A stretch of DNA of 64,000 nt from IMG/VR virus record IMGVR_UViG_3300017971_000007. The stretch is one strand, 5' to 3'. This document shows positions 36,085 through 59,454 of the stretch, piece by piece. Below the pieces are notes generated by a model, which had not been told where the DNA came from, made no database searches, and saw only the letters and a program-made list of their open reading frames with translations. Numbering within the stretch: the stretch's first letter is position 1; each line of letters starts with the position of its first letter. Both the position numbers and the translations under genes were made by a program. This stretch comes from a virus.

Positions 36085-36139
36085 TAGATTGAGACGAGGA
36101 TCCCGGAGAAGGGCAACCGAGGGACCCAAAGGAGATACA

Positions 36140-39100
36140 ATGTCTAGACTAGCCCCAGAAGAAAACTTCGAAGCGTTAAAAGAAAAAGTATCAGAAACAT
36201 TAAAAGGGATATTCCCTATAGAAGGGAAGAATCAGTCACTAAGGCTGGATGATGTTCTAATCAATGACGATAAAGATATCGATGATTTCAGAACACAGAA
36301 GGAGGCAAGACTGAATGGAAGGACGTGGTCCGTTCCGGTCAGCGCCTCTTTTTCGTTGATAGACAATGAGACCGGAAAAGTAATAAATACTAGGCGGCAG
36401 AAAATAATGAACCTGCCAAAAATCACAAGCAGGCACAGTTACATAGTCGATGGGCAGGAGTATCAAGTCGATAATCAATGGCGGTTGAAATATGGAGTGT
36501 ATTCCAGAAAGAACGATAAGGGAGAAATAGAGTCGACGTTTCACACGAGAGGAGCTCCTGGATTTAAACTGAGATTTGATCCAGAATCCTCAAATTTTGT
36601 GATGAAGAAAGGAAATTCTGAATTTCCTGCATACCCAATTCTCAGGGAGATGGGAGTATCTGACAGCAACATAGAGCAAATTTGGGGAAAGGAGATATTG
36701 GAGACAAACAGATCTACTGACCCTAAAAAAGCTCTTATGAGTTTCCATAGAGCCATTACTGGTACTAAAGCCCAGAATGTGGAGGAGGCGAGAGAGTATA
36801 TCAAAGATTATATGGCAAAGACTGATATGGATGAGGATGTAAACAGGATAACTCTGGGAAGGAAGCAAAGTGTAGTTGACGGGAATCTGATGCTGGAGGC
36901 GAGCGGAAAGCTGCTGGGAATAAGTCGGGGGACTAAGAAACCGGATGTAAGAGATTCTCTCATCTTTAAATCTTTCCACTCTACAGAAGATTTCATTTCC
37001 GAGGCCCTGACCAATAGATCTAGAGATATACTGAAAAAAATAAGAAATAATTTAGACAGAAAGCAGCAGGTAAAAGAAATAATCGGCACTGACTTATTCA
37101 ACAAGCCCATAGCCCACGCATTCACAAAAACATCTCTATCGAATCACGTCGATCAGACGAATCCTTTGGAGATGTTATCTGGAGCAATGAAGACAACGAT
37201 AATGGGAGAGGGCGGAATAAAGGACGCTCATAAAATAACTGATGACGCGAAATTGGTCGATGAGTCTCATCTTGGATTCCTAGACCCAATCCATACTCCA
37301 GAATCTGATAGAAGCGGGATTACGTTGCACTTACCGGTTGGGGCGTACAAGAAAGGAAATACTGTCGTAAATAAGCTTTACAACCTAAAAACCGGGAAGA
37401 TGGAAGAGGTAGACCCAGAAAAAGCCTATAATTCGAAAATAGCTCTGCCAGACCAAGTTAAATGGGTGAAAGGGAAACCGGTTGCTCTGCATGACGAGGT
37501 AAAGATGAGCGGCCAGGAGAACGAGATTATAACTGGATCGTTAAAAGATGCAGATTATGCTGTAACGTCCCCAGTTCAGCTGTTCTCCATCGCCTCGAAC
37601 ATGGTCCCATTTCTTCAAAACAATAGCGGGAACAGAGCCACGTATGCCGGAAAGCAGATGGAGCAGGCCCTGTCCTTAAAGCATAGAGAAGAACCTCTAG
37701 TCCAGACAGCTATAGTCTCTGGAAGGCCTGAATCCAGCTTAAATGAGTTTGTCGGAAGGATTAATTCCCAGAGATCTCCTATAAACGGGGAAATTGTGGA
37801 AGTAAAGAACGACGCGATTATTGTGAAGGGAGAGGATGGAAAGAATAGAGAAGTTCAAATCTATGACAATTTCCCTCTAAATGACGACAAATCATTTATG
37901 CACTCAGACCCGATTGTGAAGGTCGGAGACAAAGTAAAGAAGGGTCAGACGTTAGCTGATACGAATTTCTCGAAAAACGGGAAACTGGCGATAGGTACAA
38001 ATTTAAAAGCCGCATATATCCCGTTCAAAGGTTACAACTTCGAGGACGGGATAGTGATAAGTGAGTCCGCGGCCAAGAAACTCACTAGTGAGCATATGAA
38101 GAGAAAGTCCTTGGATGTGACTAGCGAGCATATTCAAGACAAAAATAAATTTATAGCCTATGAGAGGGCAAATATAAATCAGGAACAGGCCGACAAGCTC
38201 AGTGACGACGGGATCATAAAAAAAGGAAGTCTTGTAATGCCTGGAGATACGCTAATAGCGGCTTTAAAGAAGAGGGAGGAAACAGACGAGGCTAGAATAA
38301 AAGCCAAGATGCACAAATCCCTGGTCAAGCCCTACGATAACGTATCTGTGAAATGGGAAAGTGATTATCCGGGAGTAGTTACCGGAATCGTAAAAAAAGG
38401 TGGAAAGACTGAGGTCCATGTTAGGACGGAAGAGCCTGCTGAAATCGGAGACAAACTTTGTGGGAGGTCTGGGAACAAGGGCATTATCACAAGAATAATT
38501 CCAGACCATGAGATGCCGAAGACTAAAGATGGGGAGCATGTCGAAATAGCTCTTAACCCGACTGGTGTAGCAGGAAGAATAAATCTGGGGCAGATTCTGG
38601 AAACGGCTGCCGGAAAAATTGCTCAGAAGACAGGAAAGCCTTACACGGTTCAGAATTTCGATGGGACAGAGGATATGACAGAGAGGGTTTCCAGAGAGCT
38701 AAAAGCTCATGGCATAGAGGATAAGGAGGAATTAGTTGACCCCAAAACCGGAAAAGTTATGGGAAAGGCCTTAGTAGGTCCGCATTATATTCACAAACTA
38801 AAACACCAGGTAGAGAAAAAATTAGTAGCTAGAGCAGGAGGCCCTGGATATCTGTATGACATGAACAAGATTCCGAAGAGTGGTTCAAGACCCGGACTCG
38901 GAGCTCAGGCTATGGATGCCTTAGGCATGTACGCGATGTTAGCGCACGGAGCAAACGCTAATGTTAGGGAGATGGCCACTTATAAAAGTGATGCAGAGAA
39001 TAATGATAGGCTTTGGTCTTCGATTCAAGCTGGGGATGTTCTCCCTCCTCCAAGACCATCATTTGCGTACAACAAGTTCATTGATTTGCTGAAAGTAGCT

Positions 39101-42100
39101 GGGGTAAACACCGTAAAAGAAGGAAACTCCCTGAATCTGGTTCCCATAACTGACAAGCAGATACTTGAGATGAGTAATGGGGAAATCAAAGATGCTGGGA
39201 GAATTGTAACGGCTAAGGACATTAAAGAGGAAAAAGGCGGTCTCCTGGATAAGCAAATAACTGGAGGGGTGAGTGGAACGAAATGGTCGCACATAACACT
39301 TCCGGAAAAAATGCCCAATCCTATCTTCGAAAAAAGCATCGTCTCCCTAACTGGAATTAAGGCTAAGGAATATGAAGACATCGTATATGGCAGAAAAGCT
39401 ATCAATACCAAAACCGGGAAAATAGTTCCTCCAGAAGATGGAATATCCGGCGGTCCAGCCATAGAGCATCTTCTAAGCAAAGTAGACGTCGGAAAAGAGT
39501 TGGAGGCTGCAGAAAAACAACTGAACGACCCCAACATGAGAGCGGACAAGCTAGACCCCATAAACAAGAAAGTAAAATATCTGAAATCGCTGAAACGGCT
39601 GGACATGAATCCGGTTGAGGCTTACATGACCAAGCATGTTCCAGTTCTTCCGCCGTCTATGAGACCTATCTCAGTTATGCAGGATGGAACCCTAATCCAA
39701 GATGATATGAATGGGGTTTATAAAGGTCTGGGCCTCGTAGTAAATAAATTCAAGGACGCTGACCCTAGCGTTCTCCCGCAGGAGGATATCAATAACAGAC
39801 GAGGTTCCATATACGATGCTCTGAAGAGCGTGTCCGGGCTTGGCGGGTACATAAACAGAGAACATAAGGGAGTCCTAGATATCATAAGTGGTAAATCAGC
39901 ATCCAAAGACAGTGACCTGAAAAGCGGAAGTCCTAGAGATTCGTATTTCCAAAGCAAGCTCATAAAAAGGAAACAGGACCTGTCTATGCGCTCCACAATC
40001 ATTCCTGAGCCTGAATTAAGCCTGGACCAGGTAGGGATCCCCAGACAGGCGGCAATGGAAATCTACAAACCGTTTGTCATGAAAGAGATTAGAGGGATGA
40101 CTGGTGTGTCCCCTCTTCAAGCCCAAAAACTGGTAGAGAAGGGAGATACTCTAGCAAACAGGGCGCTGGAAAGGGTTGTAGAGAATAGACCGCTTCTAAT
40201 GAAAAGAGACCCAGTTCTTCACAAGTACGGGGTCCAGGCATTCAAGCCTATTCTCACTAGCGGAAAAGCGATAAAGATTCATCCGCTAGTGACATCAGGA
40301 TTTAATGCAGATTTCGACGGGGATCAACAAATAAACACGGTATTCGCGTTAGTTCCTAGAGATATGTATAATCACGATTCTGGATTTTGGGGTGCACGGA
40401 AAGTAGGAATGAGCGCAAGATTTAAAGAGACTGTCGGATATCTAGAGTCCATGGATGGAGAATTCGCGGTCTGTAATTTGGAAGATTTCCCTAGAGAGAA
40501 GAAATTAAAATCCAAAGATCATATCGACTTCTGGACCGTACCCAATGGAATAAAGGTCGTGGCAATGGATGAGAGGACAAATCAACCTGTTTTGGCTGAT
40601 GTCAGCGGATGGTCATTTCATAGGAAACGAAAGGTTCAGATTGTAGAGCTCGGCAGCGGCAGACAGATAATAACTGATGATGATGAGAGGGCTGTATATG
40701 GAATAGATGTATCTTCATTAAAATGGTGTAGGAAGAGACCTGATGAATCCAAGAATCAGTTTGTCCCGGTGCTGAGTAAGATCCCTGTTCCGGATGAGCT
40801 CATAACACGGATACCGCTTCCAGATTCTCCTCGTTTGAGAAAGGAAGCTCGTTTAGACGGGCAATTTGGATATTTTTTAGGAACAATGATTGGGAATGGA
40901 TGGCCTGGAATCTCAAAAGGTGTTCCTAGAGACGTCTGCTTTTCTACAGAATATGATTCCGTATATGATGCCTGGTTTGAGTCTCTCCTTTCTGTATTCA
41001 AGAAACACCCGAATATCTATTACAGGAGTACAACCAGAGGTCAATTTAAAGGATCAGAGGGGTCTGAATCGCAAATTGTTTCCTGTGCCCCGCTAGCGGT
41101 TCTAATCAAGGAGTTGATAGGAAGTGGGGCAGAGAACAAACACCTTCCCCCATTCTATATCTCCGCTCCGAACATATTTATTAAGGGATTGTTAGCTGGT
41201 TTGTGGGATACCGATGGTTCTGTTTCCTGGTCCGAAGGAAAGAGAACTCCACAATTCATGTGTTCATATACATCAAAATCCATTCGACTGGTGCAGGAGA
41301 TACAACAACTTCTAAGAATGCTAGAAATATCATCAACAATTACCTCTACAGTAACGCCTGCTGGGGAGCCGTTTTGGGTACTAAATGTTTCGATTGTTGA
41401 TTTCCATAGGTTTGGTGGATTCCCTCTTAAGAATAGAAGGAAGAAAGAGATACAGGATGAATTTCTGAGGGAGAAGCAGCCAGATTCTTCTATGTCATAT
41501 AGTCGTTACAGATTGGTTCCTGTCCCATCTGCTTTAGCAAATGAATTGAGGACTGTTCTTGGTTCGAGTTGCAGGACCTTATACGTTACTTTGTCGAAAG
41601 CTATAGAACGTCAGTATGTGTCAAAAGAGACTGCCGTGAGAATAATTAAGATAGTAGGGGAGAGATGCAGACATCCTTTATACTCTGAATGGAAATCCAT
41701 CGTTCTTATGAATAACGTCCATTTTGAGAGAGTTAAGGGAGTCAAGAAAACGGAAATAAGAGAGGACGGATACGACCTTACTGTTCCTGGATACGAGACT
41801 TTCATGTCTCTAGACGGAGTAATTCTATCAAATACAATGTCTGCCTTCGTTCCTATCTCTTCCGAGGCCGTATCAGAGGCCGCAAAAATGTTCCCGTCTA
41901 GGAACTTGTTTAATCCGGCAACAGGGTCCCTGATGTATAAACCCACACTAGAAAGTCAATTAGGACTGTACATGATGTCCAAAGACGGGGACATCAAAGA
42001 CAAGTCTTTCAAGACCTTCCAGGAGGCCGCCGATGCAGCTAAAAAAGGACAGATAGCTTTCACTGATGTAGTGAAGATAGGAAAGGATAAGACTACAGTC

Positions 42101-43855
42101 GGTAAGATGATGATAGCCAACTCTCTTCCTGAGGAGATGCGCCGGGAGATAATTACAGGCGGGGAAATGACGGGTAAGAGACAGGCAGAAATTCTTACTA
42201 GAGTAGCTAAAGAGCGTAAGGCAGATTTCGGGCAGGTAGCGGATAAGTTCAAGGATATGGGAAATACGTATTCCTCAGAAACGGCGTTCTCTCTGGGAAT
42301 AGAGGACCTAAAAACTGATAAATCCAGACGTAATAGGATACTAGAAGAAGCTGATAGACGGGTTAAACAGGCTCTAAAATCAAAAGACCCAAACAAAGCC
42401 TTGAAAGATGTGGTCAGTGTCTACGATAAAGCATCTGAGAAGATGATTGAGACCATAGAAAAGGAACACGGGAAAAAGCCGACAAACCTATTCAATATGA
42501 TGAAATCTGGAATCAAGCCTCAGATGGAAGCCTATCGACAAATCACCATGGCCCCGATGTTGGTCATGAATGCCAAGGGCGAAGTGATTCCTAATCCAAT
42601 CAGAAAATCATGGTCTGAGGGATTAGACACAGGAGACTACTGGACTCAGATGTCCGGAGCTCGAAAAGGTGTCATCCAGAAGGTCCAGTCTGTTAAAGAC
42701 CCAGGATATTTCACCAAACAAGTAGTAAATACTGTCATGAACAACAGCATCTTGGCCGAAGATTGCGGAACAAAGAGAGGGATAAGTCTGGATGTGAGTG
42801 AGAAAGATATCCTGGACAGATATCTTTCTGAGGATATCAAAGTCGGAAACAAGGTCCTGAAGAAAGACACTCTGATAACTCCAGGAGTCAGAGACACTTT
42901 GAGGAATAATAAAGTCAATAAGGTATTAGTGAGGTCACCCTTAAGATGCGAGCACGGAAGGGGTCTATGCAGTAGATGTTATGGACTGGATGAGAATGGA
43001 GAAAATGTTACCACAGGGAAGAATGTTGGAATTGTTAGTGCTCAATCTATAGGAGAGAGAGCGACCCAACTATCTATGAAGACATTCCATTCAGGTGGTG
43101 TAGCCCCTGTAGGGGAGAAGTCTAAACAACAGGCGGCGTTGACTGATGGGTTTAATAGGGTCCAGCAGTTGGTCCAGATGAACAAAACTGTTCCCGGTTC
43201 AGCTACACTAAGCACTGTGAACGGTGTCGTGGACAGTGTCAGCAAAGACAAAGCCGGAGGATATAGCGTGGTTATTAGCGGAGTCAGGCATTACATACCT
43301 CAGGATAGGGGAGAACCGATGGTTTTCTCTGGAAATAAGGCCGTTCCCATTACCAAGGGATCAAAGATTCAAAAGGGAGCGCCGCTATCTGGGGGTCCGA
43401 TAAATCCGCATGAGATGTTGCCATTGACTGGAATAAACAAGGTCCAGAGTTATGTATCTGGGGCTTTGCATGATCTATATAAGAGTGAGGGGATTAGGCG
43501 GAGAAATATCGAAACTGCAGTCAAGAGCATGACTAATCTCACCAAGATAAGAAATCCAGGAGATAACCCCGAATTCATAAGAGGGGATTTTGCGCCTACC
43601 TCATACGTGCAGGCTCTGAATAAGCAGCTAGTCAAGGACAAGCGAAAGCCTATAGAGCACACTCCCGTTATCAAGGGAGTAAAAACCATGCCCCTGGACA
43701 TTCAAACGGACTGGATGGCAAGATTAAACCATGAACGTCTGACTGATACCGTAATCGATGCAGCAAACCAGGGATGGAAGTCCGATATACACGGAACCCA
43801 TCCGATTCCGGCTCTGGTCTATGGAGCAGAGTTTGGCAAAGGAAAACCATACTAA
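36140..43855 (+). CDS. DNA-directed RNA polymerase, fused beta-beta' single polypeptide, intein-containing
   Basis: Beta motifs: DQTNPL, HLGFLDPIHTPE, PFKGYNFEDGIVISES, GDKLCGRSGNKG, KLKHQVEKK. Beta' motifs: VLPPSMRP, KRQDLSMRSTI, LMKRDPVLH, NADFDGD, GARKG, EDCGT, RSPLRC..CSRCYG, QSIGERATQLSMKTFHSGG. ATG follows AAGGAG. Confidence 0.95.
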   Translation: MSRLAPEENFEALKEKVSETLKGIFPIEGKNQSLRLDDVLINDDKDIDDFRTQKEARLNGRTWSVPVSASFSLIDNETGKVINTRRQKIMNLPKITSRHSYIVDGQEYQVDNQWRLKYGVYSRKNDKGEIESTFHTRGAPGFKLRFDPESSNFVMKKGNSEFPAYPILREMGVSDSNIEQIWGKEILETNRSTDPKKALMSFHRAITGTKAQNVEEAREYIKDYMAKTDMDEDVNRITLGRKQSVVDGNLMLEASGKLLGISRGTKKPDVRDSLIFKSFHSTEDFISEALTNRSRDILKKIRNNLDRKQQVKEIIGTDLFNKPIAHAFTKTSLSNHVDQTNPLEMLSGAMKTTIMGEGGIKDAHKITDDAKLVDESHLGFLDPIHTPESDRSGITLHLPVGAYKKGNTVVNKLYNLKTGKMEEVDPEKAYNSKIALPDQVKWVKGKPVALHDEVKMSGQENEIITGSLKDADYAVTSPVQLFSIASNMVPFLQNNSGNRATYAGKQMEQALSLKHREEPLVQTAIVSGRPESSLNEFVGRINSQRSPINGEIVEVKNDAIIVKGEDGKNREVQIYDNFPLNDDKSFMHSDPIVKVGDKVKKGQTLADTNFSKNGKLAIGTNLKAAYIPFKGYNFEDGIVISESAAKKLTSEHMKRKSLDVTSEHIQDKNKFIAYERANINQEQADKLSDDGIIKKGSLVMPGDTLIAALKKREETDEARIKAKMHKSLVKPYDNVSVKWESDYPGVVTGIVKKGGKTEVHVRTEEPAEIGDKLCGRSGNKGIITRIIPDHEMPKTKDGEHVEIALNPTGVAGRINLGQILETAAGKIAQKTGKPYTVQNFDGTEDMTERVSRELKAHGIEDKEELVDPKTGKVMGKALVGPHYIHKLKHQVEKKLVARAGGPGYLYDMNKIPKSGSRPGLGAQAMDALGMYAMLAHGANANVREMATYKSDAENNDRLWSSIQAGDVLPPPRPSFAYNKFIDLLKVAGVNTVKEGNSLNLVPITDKQILEMSNGEIKDAGRIVTAKDIKEEKGGLLDKQITGGVSGTKWSHITLPEKMPNPIFEKSIVSLTGIKAKEYEDIVYGRKAINTKTGKIVPPEDGISGGPAIEHLLSKVDVGKELEAAEKQLNDPNMRADKLDPINKKVKYLKSLKRLDMNPVEAYMTKHVPVLPPSMRPISVMQDGTLIQDDMNGVYKGLGLVVNKFKDADPSVLPQEDINNRRGSIYDALKSVSGLGGYINREHKGVLDIISGKSASKDSDLKSGSPRDSYFQSKLIKRKQDLSMRSTIIPEPELSLDQVGIPRQAAMEIYKPFVMKEIRGMTGVSPLQAQKLVEKGDTLANRALERVVENRPLLMKRDPVLHKYGVQAFKPILTSGKAIKIHPLVTSGFNADFDGDQQINTVFALVPRDMYNHDSGFWGARKVGMSARFKETVGYLESMDGEFAVCNLEDFPREKKLKSKDHIDFWTVPNGIKVVAMDERTNQPVLADVSGWSFHRKRKVQIVELGSGRQIITDDDERAVYGIDVSSLKWCRKRPDESKNQFVPVLSKIPVPDELITRIPLPDSPRLRKEARLDGQFGYFLGTMIGNGWPGISKGVPRDVCFSTEYDSVYDAWFESLLSVFKKHPNIYYRSTTRGQFKGSEGSESQIVSCAPLAVLIKELIGSGAENKHLPPFYISAPNIFIKGLLAGLWDTDGSVSWSEGKRTPQFMCSYTSKSIRLVQEIQQLLRMLEISSTITSTVTPAGEPFWVLNVSIVDFHRFGGFPLKNRRKKEIQDEFLREKQPDSSMSYSRYRLVPVPSALANELRTVLGSSCRTLYVTLSKAIERQYVSKETAVRIIKIVGERCRHPLYSEWKSIVLMNNVHFERVKGVKKTEIREDGYDLTVPGYETFMSLDGVILSNTMSAFVPISSEAVSEAAKMFPSRNLFNPATGSLMYKPTLESQLGLYMMSKDGDIKDKSFKTFQEAADAAKKGQIAFTDVVKIGKDKTTVGKMMIANSLPEEMRREIITGGEMTGKRQAEILTRVAKERKADFGQVADKFKDMGNTYSSETAFSLGIEDLKTDKSRRNRILEEADRRVKQALKSKDPNKALKDVVSVYDKASEKMIETIEKEHGKKPTNLFNMMKSGIKPQMEAYRQITMAPMLVMNAKGEVIPNPIRKSWSEGLDTGDYWTQMSGARKGVIQKVQSVKDPGYFTKQVVNTVMNNSILAEDCGTKRGISLDVSEKDILDRYLSEDIKVGNKVLKKDTLITPGVRDTLRNNKVNKVLVRSPLRCEHGRGLCSRCYGLDENGENVTTGKNVGIVSAQSIGERATQLSMKTFHSGGVAPVGEKSKQQAALTDGFNRVQQLVQMNKTVPGSATLSTVNGVVDSVSKDKAGGYSVVISGVRHYIPQDRGEPMVFSGNKAVPITKGSKIQKGAPLSGGPINPHEMLPLTGINKVQSYVSGALHDLYKSEGIRRRNIETAVKSMTNLTKIRNPGDNPEFIRGDFAPTSYVQALNKQLVKDKRKPIEHTPVIKGVKTMPLDIQTDWMARLNHERLTDTVIDAANQGWKSDIHGTHPIPALVYGAEFGKGKPY
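40325..41833 (+). mobile_element. Atypical intein (about 503 aa) with a LAGLIDADG domain, inserted directly after NADFDGD
   Basis: Removal restores NADFDGD|TMSAFVP. Ends GYDLTVPGYETF...ILSN/T. Endonuclease motifs FLGTMIGNG and LAGLWDTDG. The N-terminal boundary is uncertain. Confidence 0.85.
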
Positions 43856-48701: not shown

Positions 48702-49193
48702 ATGAGAGAAAATGAAGAGAAAGCTTTACTGAGTTTGGTGGAAGCTGATGAGTACACCGATGTTGATTCCTTGGAGAATGCGAGAGCTGTTGGGGAGTTA
48801 ATCTGCGATGGTGACTTCGCTCATATCAGAATGTTTCGTGAAGATGATCTTATATATCATGTCTTCAGAGGACCAAAAGTACATGAAAGGTACTGGGGAA
48901 CAGGGGAGTTCGGTCTAGATGTTTTGTCATCCATAGAATCGATTTGGCCGTCTGATTTCCCTAATGTTGATTTCGACATCAATGCAGTTAGGTTAGAAGT
49001 GTATGCGGATGAAATCGACAAACGAAGTAAATACCCGGACCATTATTACGGGGCCTATTTGGTAGCTGTCAGAAACATTCATCTGAAACCGGTTTTAAGT
49101 ACGAGAAAAATTCGACAATTCGGTGAAATCCTAGAACTTAACGTAGAAAAAAGAATGGAAATTTGGTTGAGGAATCTTGTTAGTCAATATTAG
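48702..49193 (+). CDS. Hypothetical protein
   Basis: 163-aa ORF with RBS. Confidence 0.6.
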   Translation: MRENEEKALLSLVEADEYTDVDSLENARAVGELICDGDFAHIRMFREDDLIYHVFRGPKVHERYWGTGEFGLDVLSSIESIWPSDFPNVDFDINAVRLEVYADEIDKRSKYPDHYYGAYLVAVRNIHLKPVLSTRKIRQFGEILELNVEKRMEIWLRNLVSQY

Positions 49194-52100
49194 AGAAGCA
49201 GAAGCTCTCGCTTCTAGATCAGTAGTACCCCTAAGTTACGCAACGCAGGTTGTGGGAGGGGAAAAATACACCGAACCGTTCCATGATTATAACGGCGAAG
49301 GTAGTCCTGAATATTATGGGTTTGATAACGAACCGAGGGAACCTACAGACGAGGAATTTGATGAGTTTCAGGACGGAAATTACCTCTATAACGTAAGTCC
49401 TCACGAGTTTGTAGAAACAGCTATAAACATTGGAGACGAGGGGAAGACTGTAAAGTTCTCCTTCGAAGAACGTCCCTATCTAATAAGAATCTATAACACC
49501 GGTTCCAGAAAATCTCTTCTCAAGTGTGGGCGACAGACAGAAAAGTGTGGAAGATTTCAACTACTTAGCATACTTAAAGCTTCTGGACAGCTGGTATCTG
49601 TGAAGGACCTGAAGGTTGGTGATGAAGTCATATCGCTGAGGACGTCAGGGGATAATAGATTCGGTCCTGAGCTTGGGACCGGGCCGGAACCAGTTCAGAC
49701 AGATTGGAGATTAACGAGGGATGTAGTCACAAGAATCAAGAACGTAGGCAAAAGGAGGTCCCTAAGAATAAGAACTAGAATGGGGTCAGAGCTGGAGGTC
49801 GGGGAAGACCATCCTATTTTATCGCATTGGGGATGGACGTGTGCTGGAGAAATAGAGGTAGGAGATAGAGTATCTGCAGTTCGGGGCATAGACGGGTGCG
49901 CGAAATTTGGAAATGGTTCGGGGTTACGAAATGGAGAGGTACCCTTATACGGATATTACTTAGCTGACGGAACATCCAGAAGTGGGATGTTCCAGATAAC
50001 AAAAACATATGCACGTATAAGAAAAAAAATAGAGCATCTTCTAGATTCATCCGGGAACCGATATTCAACTAACGAGAGTAGAGTAAACATAAGCAGAAGC
50101 TCTAATTTGTCGAGATTGATTAAGTCGGATGGATTGTGGGGGAAATACTCCTCAGAAAAATTCATACCTGATTGGATATTCGAGAAATGCACCAGAAATG
50201 AGACCATAGAATTCATAAAATCTCTGTGGGTTGATTGTGATAGTTCCGCAATTTATACAACTCAGGAAAAAGGGTCTGATCAATGGGACATCGTCTATGG
50301 CAGTACAAGTAAGAGATTGGCTAAACAAGTCAGAGCTCTCCTTTGGAAATTTGGCATACCCAGTAGATTCAGAAGCGGAAATCATGGTTTCTATGAAAAC
50401 GACGAAAACAAGGATAACTATCTTGTTAGAGTAGAAACCGAAGAAGGCGTAAAGAAATTCTTAAGCCTGTTCACTGATTTTGAATTTGTAGACGACAAAA
50501 AGAGTAACAGCAACAGAGACACGTTTCCCCTGTCTATAGTTCAGCCGCTAATAGACGGGATGTGCCGAAAATGTGGAATAGGAGATAAGAGAGGAAGAGG
50601 AGAGTATGACAGTTTAAGAAAAAACGGGTTTAGGAGGAAACTGAGACACCCCCCAAATAGACAGACAATTAAGAGGTACCTGGATTTCTTCGAGAGTAGA
50701 ATAGATACAGACGATTACCTGTACACATCCCTGAGAAATCTATATTTCTCGGATATCATATGGGATGAGATAGTAGAAATTGAGGACCTCGGCGAGAACG
50801 ATGTCTATCACGTCGAAACAGAAAGATTTCACAATTACTGTATAGACGGCATCATTACCCACAATTCTACATCTCTAGGAAATAAGATAATATCGTACTC
50901 GTGCCTGAATAATCACTTTCGCTCACTGTACGTATCATCTTCGGCAGAGCAAGCTAAAGTTTTTTCGAATGACAGAATATCTGAACCTATAGCTCTGTCC
51001 CCCACAGTAAAAGCTTACACGAACTCGGTACTGACGAATGCAGTATTCCACAAGAAATTCATAAACTATTCACAAATCAGGATAAGATATGCTTATCTGA
51101 ATGCCGATAGAGTAAGAGGTATACCCGCAGACCTCATATCCATTGATGAGATACAGGATATCATCGTCGATAATATCCCAGTTATAGAAGAGTGCGCTTC
51201 TCACTCTCCATTCAAAATTTTTATCTATTCAGGGACTCCTAAATCTCTGGATAACACAATCGAGTATTATTGGTCCAACTTCTCTACTCAGAATGAATGG
51301 GTCGTTCCGTGTGAGCATCACGGTACACCGAAGGATAAGAGTTCCTGGTATTGGAACATCCTGGGGGAGAGGAATATAGGGTTGAAGGGGGTCATCTGCG
51401 AAAAATGTGGGAACCTCATAGACCCCGCGCACCCGAGTGCACAATGGGCTTCATTAAATCCAGTTACGGAGGCCAATAAAGAGAGAGTCACGTTTGATGG
51501 ATATAGAATCTCTCAGCTCATGGTTCCGTGGATACTAAAAAAAGAGACAGCGTGGCTGGAACTAAGATCAAAATATGAGCGATATTCTAGACAGAAGTTC
51601 ATAAATGAAGTTCTTGGGATGAGCTATGACTCAGGTATCAGACCTATAAATAGGACCCAGGTAGAGGCCTGCTGCCAACCAGTATATTATCTTGCAGACT
51701 ACGAACACCTTCGAACCATAGTTCAAGGAAAGCCTGTGTTCGCTGGAATTGATTGGGGGTGTCATGACGAGGAAACTAGGATTCTGACTGATATCGGATG
51801 GAAATTTTTTAAGGAACTTACTGATGAAGACAAAGTCGCTCAATGGGATCCAGATACTAGGGAGATGTCTTTCGTTAAGCCGGTAGTAAGAACAGTTCGT
51901 AAGTGGAGAGATCCTCTTTATCATTTCGAAACCAAGGGCGGGATGGATTTGATGGTAACCGGCACGCATCGTATGCGGGTTAGAGGAGTAAAAAGCGGAA
52001 ATTGGGTTACGGAATCCGCAGATAAAACTGCTGAAAGAGGAGGAAACGTAAAATTTGTCGGGTACGTGTGCTGGAAAGGTGAAGAAAGAAAGTCATTCGA

Positions 52101-53409
52101 ACTTCCAGGATTACCAAAAAGTTCGGGGTATGGAGGATGTGAATCTAAGACTTTTGATATGGATGACTGGCTAGAGTTTCTCGGATATTACTTATCTGAG
52201 GGAGGAGTCTGCCTAAGGACTAGCAAGTCTGATAAATCCAAAAGAGTCCCATATGCTGTAAAGATGTCGCAAAGAGAGTCCTCATCTCCAGAAAATGTAG
52301 ACAAGATAAGATTGTGTATGATTAGATCAGACATACCGTTCTCAGAATTTCTTAATCGAGATACAAGCGATATAAATTGGTCGATAAAGGGAAAGCAGTA
52401 CTGGAAGTGGTTTTTTGAGAATGTCGGGGAAAGCACTGAATTGAAAAGGATCCCAAGAGAGTTCTTGAGATTATCAAAAAGACAGCTCCGTATACTATTC
52501 AAATCTATGATGTTGGGGGATGGGAGCGAGGATAAGAGAGACAAAAATTTCAATGGATATTACTCCTCAACCTCGAAAGGGTTGTGCGAGGATTTCCAAG
52601 AGATATGCATAAAATTAGGGCTGAGATGTTCGGTATCTCTCCATAAACACGCATCAGGAAACAGAAAAGCGATATGGAGAGCGATGTGGTCGAGAGGAAG
52701 GGATTTCCACTTCAATACACCAGCCAAAAAAATTAAAAGAGTTCCTTATAGCGGCAAAGTCTACTGCTGCAAAGTTCCTTCTGGATACATAGTAACAGAA
52801 AGAAATGGAAAGGTAGCGTATCAAGGGAATACTGGCGAGAATTCGTATACGGTAATTTCTCTTGGGTGTTATATGGGGGACGGAAACTTCACTATCTTCT
52901 GGATTCACAGATTCACTGGAGAAGACCTAGACCCAGAGATACAAATTCGAAGAGTCTCGGAGATCATAACCCATTTCAATGTAAGTATCGTTGGTTGTGA
53001 CTATGGTGGAGGATTCGACAAGAATGCTAGACTAATTCGAGAATTCGGCCCTAATAGGGTATTCAAGTTCCAGTACAATCCTGACCAGAAAAAGGGGAAG
53101 GTGTACTGGGATGAAGGCCTTATGAGATTCGCTGTTCATAGAACAGAAGTCATGACCGATATCTTCCAGGCTATGATAAGAAAAGATATCAGAGTTCCTA
53201 ACTGGAATGATTTTGCCGACCCCTACGGAAAGGACATTCTCAATATCTTCAGTGAAGAGGTTGAGGTAAGGGGGAAAAAGATGACCGTCTACAGGCATTC
53301 TCCAGGGAATACAGATGACTCATTTCATTCAATCCTGTATTGTATGCTTGCAAGCATGATTAAATATCCGCGACCGGATATAATCGTTCCGAGGAAAGAG
53401 ACAGCATAG
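49177..53409 (+). CDS. Terminase large subunit with two inteins
   Basis: Spliced Walker A GRQTEK|ST; Walker B ISIDEIQD; SGTPK; nuclease GIDWG|T, GCDYGGG and DDSFHS. Confidence 0.92.
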   Translation: MLVNIREAEALASRSVVPLSYATQVVGGEKYTEPFHDYNGEGSPEYYGFDNEPREPTDEEFDEFQDGNYLYNVSPHEFVETAINIGDEGKTVKFSFEERPYLIRIYNTGSRKSLLKCGRQTEKCGRFQLLSILKASGQLVSVKDLKVGDEVISLRTSGDNRFGPELGTGPEPVQTDWRLTRDVVTRIKNVGKRRSLRIRTRMGSELEVGEDHPILSHWGWTCAGEIEVGDRVSAVRGIDGCAKFGNGSGLRNGEVPLYGYYLADGTSRSGMFQITKTYARIRKKIEHLLDSSGNRYSTNESRVNISRSSNLSRLIKSDGLWGKYSSEKFIPDWIFEKCTRNETIEFIKSLWVDCDSSAIYTTQEKGSDQWDIVYGSTSKRLAKQVRALLWKFGIPSRFRSGNHGFYENDENKDNYLVRVETEEGVKKFLSLFTDFEFVDDKKSNSNRDTFPLSIVQPLIDGMCRKCGIGDKRGRGEYDSLRKNGFRRKLRHPPNRQTIKRYLDFFESRIDTDDYLYTSLRNLYFSDIIWDEIVEIEDLGENDVYHVETERFHNYCIDGIITHNSTSLGNKIISYSCLNNHFRSLYVSSSAEQAKVFSNDRISEPIALSPTVKAYTNSVLTNAVFHKKFINYSQIRIRYAYLNADRVRGIPADLISIDEIQDIIVDNIPVIEECASHSPFKIFIYSGTPKSLDNTIEYYWSNFSTQNEWVVPCEHHGTPKDKSSWYWNILGERNIGLKGVICEKCGNLIDPAHPSAQWASLNPVTEANKERVTFDGYRISQLMVPWILKKETAWLELRSKYERYSRQKFINEVLGMSYDSGIRPINRTQVEACCQPVYYLADYEHLRTIVQGKPVFAGIDWGCHDEETRILTDIGWKFFKELTDEDKVAQWDPDTREMSFVKPVVRTVRKWRDPLYHFETKGGMDLMVTGTHRMRVRGVKSGNWVTESADKTAERGGNVKFVGYVCWKGEERKSFELPGLPKSSGYGGCESKTFDMDDWLEFLGYYLSEGGVCLRTSKSDKSKRVPYAVKMSQRESSSPENVDKIRLCMIRSDIPFSEFLNRDTSDINWSIKGKQYWKWFFENVGESTELKRIPREFLRLSKRQLRILFKSMMLGDGSEDKRDKNFNGYYSSTSKGLCEDFQEICIKLGLRCSVSLHKHASGNRKAIWRAMWSRGRDFHFNTPAKKIKRVPYSGKVYCCKVPSGYIVTERNGKVAYQGNTGENSYTVISLGCYMGDGNFTIFWIHRFTGEDLDPEIQIRRVSEIITHFNVSIVGCDYGGGFDKNARLIREFGPNRVFKFQYNPDQKKGKVYWDEGLMRFAVHRTEVMTDIFQAMIRKDIRVPNWNDFADPYGKDILNIFSEEVEVRGKKMTVYRHSPGNTDDSFHSILYCMLASMIKYPRPDIIVPRKETA
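49546..50865 (+). mobile_element. Intein 1 of TerL (440 aa) with a LAGLIDADG domain
   Basis: C1...EDHP...YHVET..HNYCIDGIITHN/S; YGYYLADG. Confidence 0.92.
51760..52830 (+). mobile_element. Intein 2 of TerL (357 aa) with a LAGLIDADG domain
   Basis: CHDEETRIL...VTGTH...VYCCKVP...NGKVAYQGN/T; FLGYYLSEG and MMLGDG. Confidence 0.92.
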
Positions 53410-56511: not shown

Positions 56512-59454
56512 ATGCACACTAAACTCTGCAATTATAGACCATTCGATGATCACGGCCAGCAGGTCCTAACAATCCTTCACCATCCGGACCAACTCCATCA
56601 TTCGTATATGGATAAGCTGGCCGCTCCCTACCTTCCACAGGTAAGGGAATTCATCGATAGGTTAAAACCTGACCCAAAGTCCATCTACGCTCTAATTAAT
56701 GCACTGGGAGCGTTTGAATATTATTCCAGCAACATCAACGGCGACGCATTCGAAGAAGAGATGTTGATGCACTCAGGCCCGATATACGGGTACGAGACAT
56801 TCGTTCATTATGCGAAGCCGTTCATGCACCATTGTTTTAGGGCAGGGACAGAAGTAGTGATGGGTGATCGGATAAGGAAGCCTATCGCTCTAATCAAATC
56901 CGGAGAATTAGTAGAAACGAGATTAGGCCCTCGCCCGGTTAAACGTTCTATAAGCCGCCATTACAGCGGACCAGGTGTTCGACTATCTTTATCGGGAGTG
57001 GAAGAAGATATAGAGGGAAGCTGGGACCATCCTGTTTTTGTTTTTCAGCGGGATCAAATACATTGCTCACATAAGTACTCCAGACTCAGACCAGAGCAAC
57101 GTCATTTCGAAGAGTACCCATCATGTCTTGACAAGATTTCCCTGTCTCTAAAAGAAATCCCATTAGGAGAAGTACTTCCCGGAGACTATATGGTGTTTCC
57201 TCGTCCGCAGTTGGGAGGCGAGCAGATTCCGGACGAATTCGCAGAATTAGTCGGTTGGGTAGCATCTGAAGGATACTGTGCGGGACAGCGAGGCATGATT
57301 CAGTTCACGTTCTGCGAATTTAATCACGAGGATATAAAATCTGTCAGTGATTGTCTGAAGAACAATGGGCTGAATGTTACCAAGACTGACATACCAGATA
57401 AAGAGCAGGTAGTTTTATCGTCCTGGTCGGTTGAATTGTGGGACAGACTTCAAGAGTATGTCGTGGGCGTGAAATCTGAGAAGCATCTAACTGGAAGAGT
57501 TCTGTCGTGGAATGAGCGCGCCATAAAACTTTTATTGGGAGTTTATATTGACGGTGACGGGCATGTCCCTAAAAAAGGAAGAAACGAAGGGCAATTAAGG
57601 ATTCGATCCTCTTCCCAGCAAATGTTAAAGGTCTTATCCGACATAATACGGGCGCTGGGAATTCCCACTACTATTCAATGGGACCAAAAACCTGGATATA
57701 GAACATTTCCGAACGGGAAAACTTATTGGTGTAGCGGCAGTGGAACAGTTACGGTGACTCCACAATTCTCCCAGGAGATAACACTATATTCTAGGAAATA
57801 TTATATCAAAGACATGAAAGTTTTTAGGCCGCGTCCAGTTATAGGTAACTTTTTCCTGGTACGTGTTACTGGGAAAGAAGATACCTTTCTGGACGAGGAC
57901 TTATACAATCTTGAGGTTGATGACGTTCCAGAATATGTGGCCGGGGAAGTACTAGTCCATAACTGTAATAAGGGACCGGATGCCAGGGTGTTCGGCTCTG
58001 TGGAATTAAGTTGCTGGAATCCGAACATGCATCGGGTAGAGGTCGTAGCAAGACTCGACAGACAAATGGCTGAACTAGCCAACGCCCAGAGGGTAATTGA
58101 TAAGATAGACCATGGAGAGCTCCCAGAAACTAGCATGGGGGCGAAGGTCCTATTCGATCTCTGTTCTATCACCACCGACTGGGACGAGTATAAGAAGGCC
58201 TTAGCGACGTACAACCCAAATGTTCATAGACATCCTGGTTTTGCTGTCCTTCATTACCACAAAACAAAACGTCCTATACAAGGACTAGCCATAGACAAGG
58301 ATGAATGGACAGACATCTTTAAGACCAGAAGGAATGATATTCTTCCTGATGGCAGGAAAGTGTTTGTCTATAATCCATATCCACGATTCTTTGACATCAG
58401 TTTCGTCTTTATAGGCGCAGAAAAAACTTCGAAGGTAATGGCGAAACTAGCTTCTAGAGGATTCATATCCGTTCCAAGAAATCTTCCGCCAGTCTCCGAG
58501 TACACAGATAAATCCTATGGATTCGAGAAATCAGCATCTGTAGAAGGGGCCAGAAATTTACTCAAAGAGTTCAAGAAAAAAGCCTCACAACTAAAAAGCG
58601 CAGAGCATACAAAAAGGATTGTACCGTCCCAGTTTGGGGACAAAGCAGTTAGCTTAATTGAAAGGGCGGAACCTGATTTGCCGAGGCAATTTCTGGATAT
58701 GATGTCTGAACATCCACTTCAGGAATCCCTGTCAACCCCATGTATGGCCGGCATTACCCTGAAGCCGAAAGAGTTCCAGAGAATTGTCATTATGAGAATC
58801 GGGAACAGGGATATGGCCGATGAGTTGGATAGGGAAAATTGCGTTTTCAGAAAAGTAGATGATGTCGACAAATCGGTTCAAATCGGTCCCCAACACATCA
58901 ACGATCAAATTGCCGAAATGTTGAAGGGGTTGATTGAAGGGAGAAGCGCTTTCGGACCTGTCCTAAAAAGAAGGATGATTAAGATAGTCATCCATGGAAC
59001 CCCTGAAGAAGAACAGGAACCGAGAGAAGTCGAAGACAAGCTCCTTGATAAGATATCCGCCGCGTATAACGGGTACAGAGAGAATGTGATTGAGAAAATC
59101 TCTAGCTTGAGCGGAGAACTTCACAGGTATCCAAATTTGAGGTCTGAGATATATGGAAGGGACCTCACGGACATGTTCTCGAAAACCGCATCCCAACAAT
59201 CGAAAGAATATGAGGATATGTTGGGAGCAGTACCCGCTACTTATTTGATGACTGTCTTCGCCAGAAGACAGATGCAGAAAGATTTGAAGGCCGGAAGAGA
59301 ACCGGATATCCTTACTCAGTTATACGCAGATTATCCACAGTTAGCTAATACTGTGGTAGGTTTAACAGCGTTGAAAGCATCTGGCACATCAGTACCAGAT
59401 GAAGTAATAGCCACAGCAATTAATGCTGGTGAGAACTTGGTACAAAGTAAATAG
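56512..59454 (+). CDS. Prohead (capsid maturation) serine protease with an intein and a long C-terminal extension
   Basis: NINGDAF...YETF...PFMHH|CN...G.V...SMG.....CS...FFDISFV..GAE matches assemblin/HK97-type proteases; located upstream of scaffold-like genes and MCP. Confidence 0.8.
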   Translation: MHTKLCNYRPFDDHGQQVLTILHHPDQLHHSYMDKLAAPYLPQVREFIDRLKPDPKSIYALINALGAFEYYSSNINGDAFEEEMLMHSGPIYGYETFVHYAKPFMHHCFRAGTEVVMGDRIRKPIALIKSGELVETRLGPRPVKRSISRHYSGPGVRLSLSGVEEDIEGSWDHPVFVFQRDQIHCSHKYSRLRPEQRHFEEYPSCLDKISLSLKEIPLGEVLPGDYMVFPRPQLGGEQIPDEFAELVGWVASEGYCAGQRGMIQFTFCEFNHEDIKSVSDCLKNNGLNVTKTDIPDKEQVVLSSWSVELWDRLQEYVVGVKSEKHLTGRVLSWNERAIKLLLGVYIDGDGHVPKKGRNEGQLRIRSSSQQMLKVLSDIIRALGIPTTIQWDQKPGYRTFPNGKTYWCSGSGTVTVTPQFSQEITLYSRKYYIKDMKVFRPRPVIGNFFLVRVTGKEDTFLDEDLYNLEVDDVPEYVAGEVLVHNCNKGPDARVFGSVELSCWNPNMHRVEVVARLDRQMAELANAQRVIDKIDHGELPETSMGAKVLFDLCSITTDWDEYKKALATYNPNVHRHPGFAVLHYHKTKRPIQGLAIDKDEWTDIFKTRRNDILPDGRKVFVYNPYPRFFDISFVFIGAEKTSKVMAKLASRGFISVPRNLPPVSEYTDKSYGFEKSASVEGARNLLKEFKKKASQLKSAEHTKRIVPSQFGDKAVSLIERAEPDLPRQFLDMMSEHPLQESLSTPCMAGITLKPKEFQRIVIMRIGNRDMADELDRENCVFRKVDDVDKSVQIGPQHINDQIAEMLKGLIEGRSAFGPVLKRRMIKIVIHGTPEEEQEPREVEDKLLDKISAAYNGYRENVIEKISSLSGELHRYPNLRSEIYGRDLTDMFSKTASQQSKEYEDMLGAVPATYLMTVFARRQMQKDLKAGREPDILTQLYADYPQLANTVVGLTALKASGTSVPDEVIATAINAGENLVQSK
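56833..57963 (+). mobile_element. Intein in the prohead protease (377 aa) with a LAGLIDADG domain
   Basis: CFRAGTEV...SWDHP...LYNLEV..EYVAGEVLVHN/C; VGWVASEG and LGVYIDGDG. Confidence 0.93.

Follow-up and report, generated by a model that had tools for sequence, protein, structure and literature searches.

Within the 64,000 nucleotides of viral DNA considered here (IMG/VR record IMGVR_UViG_3300017971_000007, the whole of which we call the window), a gene for a phage RNA polymerase (RNAP) with fused beta and beta' chains (36140–43855, on the plus strand, like every feature of it described below) is interrupted in its catalytic loop by an intein of 503 residues (40325–41833), comprising a HINT splicing fold and a LAGLIDADG homing endonuclease. 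The intein belongs to a large clade confined to this one site, NADFDGD/T (a slash denotes a splice junction), whose members share an unfamiliar set of residues at the positions that are catalytic in known inteins. It is probably removed by an undescribed variant of protein-splicing chemistry. Taking our best explanation as a whole, we consider it moderately probable that these mobile inteins are splicing-competent and start otherwise than class 1 inteins do, possibly through a direct attack on the upstream junction by the threonine just after the intein (Thr+1).

An intein in the catalytic loop of a phage RNA polymerase

The longest open reading frame (ORF) for the polymerase runs from a TTG at 36089 to 43855, and the ATG at 36140 corresponds to the start of a database protein (P0003), giving a single beta-beta' chain of 2571–2588 residues. 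The 2588-residue frame is intact and contains all the RNAP domains when searched with Pfam (Rpb2_6, E 2e-59; Rpb1_1, Rpb1_2, Rpb1_3 and Rpb1_5), and P0003 (2571 residues), which comes from another assembly (a 174.6-kb contig), is 100% identical to it across the queried intein region. Alignment to solved bacterial beta' chains breaks off after NADFDGDQ and picks up again at MSAFVP. The catalytic NADFDGD itself (40304–40324), which forms the end of the N-extein, aligns with beta' of many solved RNAPs; its last residue, Asp33, is the −1 residue, and D29, D31, G32 and D33 are invariant in the 119 copies that make up our conservation alignment.

The insert sits exactly between NADFDGD and TMSAFVP, opening with QQINTV and closing with LSN. 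These boundaries, already proposed in an earlier note made from the sequence, are fixed by alleles that have no intein: a search with the C-extein brought up many insert-less relatives of about 2050–2100 residues, and in 81 such empty alleles no residue at all lies between DGD and the position of Thr537 (DGD is followed there by T in 43 cases, A in 16, Q in 10, K in 4, and others, and then by M). The insert is thus 40325–41833, and its residue 1 comes directly after DGD. Residue numbers such as D151, H132 and N536 are those of P0001, in which the intein (Q1 to N503) occupies residues 34–536.

Structural superposition leads to the same boundaries. An AlphaFold (AF2) model built on 47 relatives (predicted local distance difference test, pLDDT, 85; predicted template modelling score, pTM, 0.83) has a HINT fold with adjoining N- and C-termini; Foldseek gave homing-endonuclease inteins as its best matches (7qss, E 2e-21), and VIA-align matched its residue 33/34 to residue 1, and its residue 536 to the final residue, across many solved inteins (Z 16–21), so that the HINT fold by which the earlier note had hoped to locate residue 1 does place it at residue 34. 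The best matches include TliVMA, PI-TkoII and the cysteine-less Aes123 PolB1 intein (Z 18–21). Over the whole chain they are the archaeal homing-endonuclease inteins (TliVMA, 7qss/7qsu; PI-TkoII, 2cw7; PI-PfuI, 1dq3) and PI-SceI (Z 16–21), in which, too, a LAGLIDADG endonuclease with two motifs is set within a HINT domain, but which are canonical class 1 inteins (Cys1 or Ser1, TxxH) of only 14–20% identity and lack a 35-residue linker after strand 1. Pfam recognized LAGLIDADG_3 in the intein (E 5e-12) and, weakly and under its cut-off, Intein_splicing (E 1e-5); the intein sequence alone gave a single match among PDB chains, which at E 1.3 was not useful. Removal at the RNA level, as a group I intron, was considered and rejected, the window having no Rfam match, the conservation being at the protein level and the frame being open in all relatives.

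On the comparative evidence the intein is a mobile element. Occupied and empty alleles are interspersed in a tree of the exteins (54 state changes on 187 leaves, with 24 of 65 cherries differing in state), some pairs of alleles show intein identities of 0.57–0.61 against extein identities of 0.31–0.34, and the intein differs in base composition from its exteins (GC content at third codon positions 0.38 vs 0.46–0.48; AT skew 0.04 vs 0.22–0.24), all of which points to its horizontal spread.

A conserved but non-canonical set of residues

The intein region has at least 1921 relatives in the database (counted as protein clusters), and the intein is present in all of the best 120 of these, at 35–62% identity. 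They share the non-canonical residues rather than having the Cys1 and TxxH that the earlier note had considered might be found in close homologues. Among the 119 aligned copies, W129, S130, H132, D151, D152, D153, R155–G159, R169 and P172 are invariant or nearly so, as are G515–G522, E524, T525, F526, G531, L534, S535, N536 and T537, and the mean pairwise identity of the intein (0.386) is about that of the RNAP core (0.383). We therefore regard the odd residues as a clade signature under strong purifying selection and not as signs of decay. Together with the exact empty alleles, the number of relatives puts the insert well outside anything that chance would produce. All hosts with an identifiable domain are RNAP beta', fused or unfused; the same intein occurs in unfused N-terminal beta' subunits of about 1000 residues (P0317, P0324, P0335 and others, on contigs of about 200 kb), and so spans single-chain and multi-piece phage polymerases.

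The first HINT strand, equivalent to block A, is QQINTVFALVP (40325–40357; strand at about residues 38–43, pLDDT 82–90), in which neither residue 1 nor residue 2 is Cys, Ser or Thr. Residue 1 is indeed Gln in the window, as had been noted, but this Gln is not a conserved feature: among 203 non-redundant N-junctions, residue 1 is Q in 86, E in 27, D in 16, A in 13, L in 11, N in 9, S in 8 and C in 7, with others making up the rest, and it is residue 2 that is usually Gln (137/203, 67%). Cys, Ser or Thr is found at residue 1 in 15 of the 203 (7%), and at residue 1 or 2 in 33. Between strands 1 and 2 comes a clade-specific linker (40358–40465), modelled with low confidence over residues 61–80 (pLDDT 57–66), which contains a conserved MSARF (40409–40423) and within it the serine at 40412 (Ser30, counting from intein residue 1).

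Further on is a W-S-x-H motif (W129, S130 and H132; 40610–40621), with H132 invariant and S130 present in 116 of 119 copies. His132 lies 19–23 residues ahead of block B, is also found in the Ser1 sister clade described below, and is preceded by K or R in only about 40% of copies; judged by position, it is probably equivalent to the NX-motif His of cysteine-less inteins. Block B itself (GRQIITDDDERAVYG, 40658–40702) does read ITDDDER in place of TxxH, as previously noticed. Counting from the block B Gly, the Thr usual at B:7 is replaced by Asp151 (118/119), Asp153 (119/119) at B:9 corresponds to the Asp commonly seen in 'DH', B:11 is Arg155 (119/119), and the B:10 His is Glu154 in the window copy and Pro in most relatives, none of the 119 sequences having a His at any position of block B. 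The commonest forms are TDDDPR (109), TDDDER (40), SDDDPR (21) and TDNDPR (17).

At the other end, block F (T..EDGYDLTVPGYETF, 41750–41803) has the GYDLTV to which attention had been drawn; G515, Y516, D517, L518, V520, P521 and F526 vary little or not at all, with the F:4 Asp retained as the invariant Asp517 and Glu524 in place of the usual F:13 His. Block G and the C-junction (GVILSN/T, 41816–41836, with Thr+1 at 41834–41836) also read as reported earlier: Ser535 and Asn536 occur in 119 of 119 copies and Thr537 in 118, so the terminal Asn followed by Thr at +1 that an intein would show is found throughout.

The LAGLIDADG domain (40808–41716) gives the LAGLIDADG_3 match already mentioned (PF14528) and resembles I-DmoI and I-Tsp061I (Z 15–17). 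It has the two motifs of an I-DmoI-like enzyme. Motif 2 (GLLAGLWDTDGS, 41186–41221) retains its acidic Asp330 (113/119), but motif 1 (GYFLGTMIGNGW, 40868–40903; the MIGNG of the earlier note) has Asn224 in the usual acidic position, as does about one-third of the clade (D in 79, N in 38). From its sequence, homing by the window copy could plausibly be impaired or limited to nicking.

The same RNAP site is also used by other inteins. One is a canonical mini-intein, P0134 (S1...VIVHN/T). Others form a second full-length clade with the same insertion point and architecture, which shares L.DFP, S-x-H, YDLTVP and Thr+1 with the window clade and differs from it in having S, C or T at residue 1 (16/17), SxDH in block B (V or C, then S.DH) and a terminal Asp where the window clade has Asn; its C-junction, with a penultimate Trp, is VVWD/T (P0132, P0140, P0154, P0160, P0166, P0171, P0193, P0221, P0222, P0224 and P0243). 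In P0142 and P0178 the insertion point has moved by two residues (DGDKM/S...VWD/SAYVP), giving Ser1 and Ser+1. When the intein tree is rooted on P0134 the two clades separate, with a few Cys1 or Ser1 members of the window clade scattered among those beginning QQ. The residue-1 nucleophile and the block B His have been lost in concert (Fisher p 6e-15, uncorrected for phylogeny), and it was through covariation of a like kind that class 3 inteins were recognized (PMC2807308).

How does this set of residues compare with the three classes as defined in PMC2807308? The definitions bear out the earlier contention that the element fits none of them. In place of the Cys or Ser that class 1 requires at residue 1 there is Gln (or, in the clade, mostly some other residue incapable of the role, C, S or T accounting for 15/203), and in place of the block B Thr (B:7) and His (B:10) there are D151 and P/E154. 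Among class 1 inteins, the closest parallels are the cysteine-less ones (PolB16 OarG, Psp Pol-1 and Aes123 PolB1), which share with the window clade the HINT fold, Thr+1, the F:4 Asp, the terminal Asn, a His about 20 residues ahead of block B and a natural, atypical splitting that leaves a very short N-fragment; Ser1 relatives are, moreover, found at the very RNAP site of the window clade. The Aes123 PolB1 structure (PDB 9hth) superposes on the model with Z 18.3 and a root mean square deviation of 2.2 over 162 residues. In these Ser1 inteins the His ahead of block B is that of the NX motif, and PolB16 OarG can do without its block B His (PMC10189870). The window clade is unlike them in having no Ser1, Asp and Pro/Glu for the block B Thr and His, and Glu for the F:13 His; with no Ser1, the oxyester at residue 1 that is the hallmark of the cysteine-less group cannot form.

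Under the sequence rule of PMC2807308 the window clade would be class 2 by default, as it has neither an N-terminal nucleophile nor the WCT triplet of class 3. Class 2 inteins of the KlbA type, with Ala1, are the only characterized direct-attack inteins; their attacking residue is Cys+1, and they depend on the Thr and His of block B (PMC2807308), unlike the window clade with its near-invariant Thr+1 (118/119), its Asp at B:7, its Pro or Glu at B:10 and its variable residue 1 that is not typically Ala. Class 3 inteins (of the mycobacteriophage Bethlehem DnaB type) offer another set of likenesses, namely a variable, non-nucleophilic residue 1, covariation between the loss of the nucleophile there and a distinctive residue set, Thr or Ser at +1, no penultimate His, and frequent occurrence in phages. 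They nevertheless keep the block B His, which the window clade does not have, and their WCT triplet (Trp B:12, Cys F:4, Thr G:5), in which the Cys is obligate, is represented here by A156, D517 and S535.

Candidate routes of splicing

With the intein lodged in the catalytic loop, a working polymerase needs it to be removed, and since residue 1 carries neither hydroxyl nor thiol, the N-O or N-S acyl shift of class 1 cannot initiate this. It is fairly probable that this is a functional intein with a start other than that of class 1, and of the specific routes we tentatively choose direct attack by Thr+1, as possible rather than probable. A pointer to that route is that Thr occurs at +1 in 110 of the 113 occupied alleles, compared with just 43 of the 81 that are empty (Fisher p 2e-14): the polymerase has no need of a Thr there, and apparently the intein has. 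This pattern fits a branched ester on Thr+1, and not Asn cyclization alone.

We envisage that the clade derived from Ser1/Thr+1 'oxyester' class 1 inteins, of which some still reside at the same site in the sister lineages. Its losses would comprise the nucleophile at residue 1, the Thr and His of block B, and the histidines of block F and of the penultimate position; it would have retained Thr+1, the F:4 Asp, the NX-like His and the Asn at its end, and would have gained an invariant cluster of acidic and basic residues (D151-D152-D153, R155, R169 and E524). The Thr+1 hydroxyl would then directly attack the amide between Asp(−1) and residue 1, with His132 as the probable base (by analogy of position) and with D151–D153, R155 and E524 perhaps standing in for the lost histidines by straining or polarizing the scissile bond; cyclization of Asn536 would follow, and an O-N shift would yield the peptide bond.

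Several considerations tell against this scheme. Threonine is ill suited, as a nucleophile, to attacking an amide directly. The known direct-attack inteins, of the KlbA type, rely on Cys+1 and the block B His (PMC2807308). Preference of the homing endonuclease for its target, together with co-conversion, could be partly behind the conservation of Thr+1, in place of chemistry. Support for the node uniting the Ser-Asn (SN) clade in the intein tree is weak (0.40). Some copies may make a class 1 start, as Cys or Ser occupies residue 1 in about 7% of the clade and residue 2 in about 10%. Finally, splicing and every chemical step in it are things that we infer, as is the possible new splicing chemistry raised by the earlier note.

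A different activated intermediate, in one or other of three versions that we judge together to be unlikely, is the likeliest of the alternatives. In one, the carboxylate of the extein Asp(−1) would cyclize on its own carbonyl to give a succinic anhydride that would be captured by Thr+1, mirroring the Asn succinimide of the opposite junction; in another, a first branched intermediate would be formed, in the manner of class 3, by a residue of the intein, either through the carboxylate of D151 or E524 or through the internal hydroxyl of S130, T519 or S535; in the third, the DDD cluster and the acids of the extein DFDGD would together hold a metal ion that polarizes the scissile bond. At the N-junction, Asp(−1) alone provides an invariant chemical group, residue 1 tolerates variation, and the clade is restricted to one RNAP site, as might be expected if the extein took part in the chemistry; six to nine carboxylates (D151–153, D517, E524 and E513, plus D29, D31 and D33) lie near the junction, the S535 hydroxyl is invariant and specific to the SN clade, and class 3 provides a precedent for the evolution of internal nucleophiles (PMC2807308). 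However, the class 1 inteins at the same site have the same Asp(−1), which alone would not force any change, and S130, T509, T519 and T525, being just as well conserved among the Ser1 sister inteins, are not new adaptations. As for the anhydride in particular, it might generate isoaspartate at a catalytic Asp, which would be harmful, and we found no literature on an Asp(−1) anhydride in inteins. A fourth mechanistic class, in which the first acyl intermediate arises through carboxylate chemistry and not through a residue-1 Cys, Ser or Thr, a Cys+1 or a block F Cys, is in our estimation rather unlikely. Its most striking version would possibly be the Asp(−1) anhydride, perhaps assisted by a metal on the DDD and DFDGD acids, and captured by Thr+1; if true, this would explain both the variability of residue 1 and the confinement of the clade to NADFDGD/T.

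It is also conceivable, but improbable, that no ligation takes place, the intein being released by two cleavages, cut at Asn536 only or kept as a plug, to leave a polymerase that is two-chained or is inactive until some trigger. The N-junction, with neither nucleophile nor block B His, would be in keeping with this, an Asp-rich block B could in principle activate water, and an intein as conserved as the RNAP core would also be expected if it had a retained function; related phages, too, encode their polymerase in several pieces (the C-terminal piece of the split locus L049, below, has 324 residues), so perhaps a nick would be tolerated. Such a scheme does not account for a Thr+1 that is near-invariant in occupied alleles alone (110/113) and is not needed for Asn cyclization by itself; nor, from what is generally known of RNAP structure, would a 55-kDa domain easily fit in the buried catalytic loop. 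Frequent gain and loss with exact empty alleles are as in ordinary inteins, and split forms that went unligated would leave intein fragments at the active site. Far less probable is class 1 splicing from a cryptic nucleophile such as Ser30 of MSARF (the alternative start that the earlier note had allowed for), the Cys of AVCNLEDF or residue 2. The stretch MSARFKETV...DGE does resemble block A, a split relative has a C-terminal intein fragment (IntC) beginning at MSARF, and Cys is found at residue 2 of some relatives (20/203), and C, S or T at residue 1 of some (15/203). The Ser30 position is nonetheless variable (position 63: T47, S29, A27, P6), as is that of the Cys (position 83: C41, V34, F17, I9), and the window copy has Gln at both residues 1 and 2; residues 61–80 are a low-confidence linker, the first HINT strand lying earlier, and a start at Ser30 would leave 29 extra residues that are absent from every empty allele. 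With residue 1 placed at residue 34 by both empty alleles and superposition, the Ser30 start is rejected. Least probable of all is that the polymerase gene is dead and its intein decaying or misassembled: the absence of the canonical catalytic residues and the Asn in endonuclease motif 1 might suggest as much, but the unusual residues do not vary among more than 100 relatives obtained from many samples, the Asn is shared by about one-third of the clade, the 2588-residue frame is intact with all RNAP domains, and P0003, from a different assembly, is identical over the queried intein region.

Protein splicing has been divided into three mechanistic classes since 2010. A fourth class, or a Thr-based direct attack without the canonical histidines, would, if true, give a new view of the minimal catalytic requirements of HINT domains. 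Because the intein interrupts the magnesium loop, transcription by the phage RNAP depends on the reaction, and splicing is therefore predicted to be a possible control point in infection. The clade is a large one, with natural mini and split versions, N-fragments of 8–13 residues and no obligatory cysteine; such versions are of the type wanted for protein semisynthesis and for labelling under oxidizing conditions. Our searches of the literature brought to light no account of an intein of this type in the RNAP active site, and a paper on RNAP-encoding Caudovirales (mReC phage RNAP; PMC7481178) does not mention inteins, so the clade appears to be previously undescribed in the literature searched.

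Split relatives and neighbouring inteins

In some relatives the intein is naturally split, with N-fragments of 8–40 residues, two of which begin with Gln; these Gln1 forms are encoded by separate genes, with a Shine–Dalgarno sequence ahead of the IntC gene. At L053 (1300–1800), DGD/QCINSVIF is followed by a stop, then by 123 nucleotides and the IntC that begins MSARF, so that the N-fragment has 8 residues. If active, it would be the shortest natural N-fragment of which we are aware. At L049 (1500–3879)/L050, DGD/CQWGHVFVCIRNS and a stop give an N-fragment of 13 residues, separated by 1.2 kb, containing an unrelated ORF of 158 residues, from an endonuclease-free IntC of 207 residues. L051 (3800–6070) has a 40-residue N-terminal fragment (IntN) beginning QN, followed by AGGAG and an ATG, and L014 has an in-frame stop after 25 residues. 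P0341 was rejected as a split IntC, its gene call being truncated at the end of a contig, and L054, beginning at a contig edge, is uninformative on splitting.

These breaks bear on the idea, also put forward in the earlier note, that the window copy might be a split intein that has become re-fused. Its relatives are indeed split in the same linker, with one IntC beginning at MSARF; the break points differ (after 8, 13, 25 and 40 residues), however, and this fits independent splits of cis forms better than re-fusion, which as the origin of the conserved Met62 is thus only partly supported.

The window as a whole is a segment of a phage genome, with genes for a family A DNA polymerase, a DnaB-like helicase and a large terminase. 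A nucleotide search of GenBank phages revealed no near relative of it, and protein searches gave only distant LAGLIDADG and RNAP matches. The large terminase ORF (49177–53409, 1410 residues) has a canonical class 1 LAGLIDADG intein (about 49546–50865) in its Walker A region, with the junctions and motifs ..GRQTEK/CGRFQ ... GEDH ... ITHN/STSLG, so the same phage carries a standard intein alongside the non-canonical one in its RNAP. An ORF of 980 residues and unknown family (56512–59454) has a LAGLIDADG_3 domain and a canonical intein C-junction, ..EVLVHN/CNKG (with Asn as residue 484), and is probably the site of a third intein. Many homologous fused polymerases (P0004, P0005, P0015, P0155 and others) are 3000–4700 residues long and have, according to Pfam, extra intein and LAGLIDADG domains elsewhere; this family of phage polymerases appears to be a hot spot for inteins.

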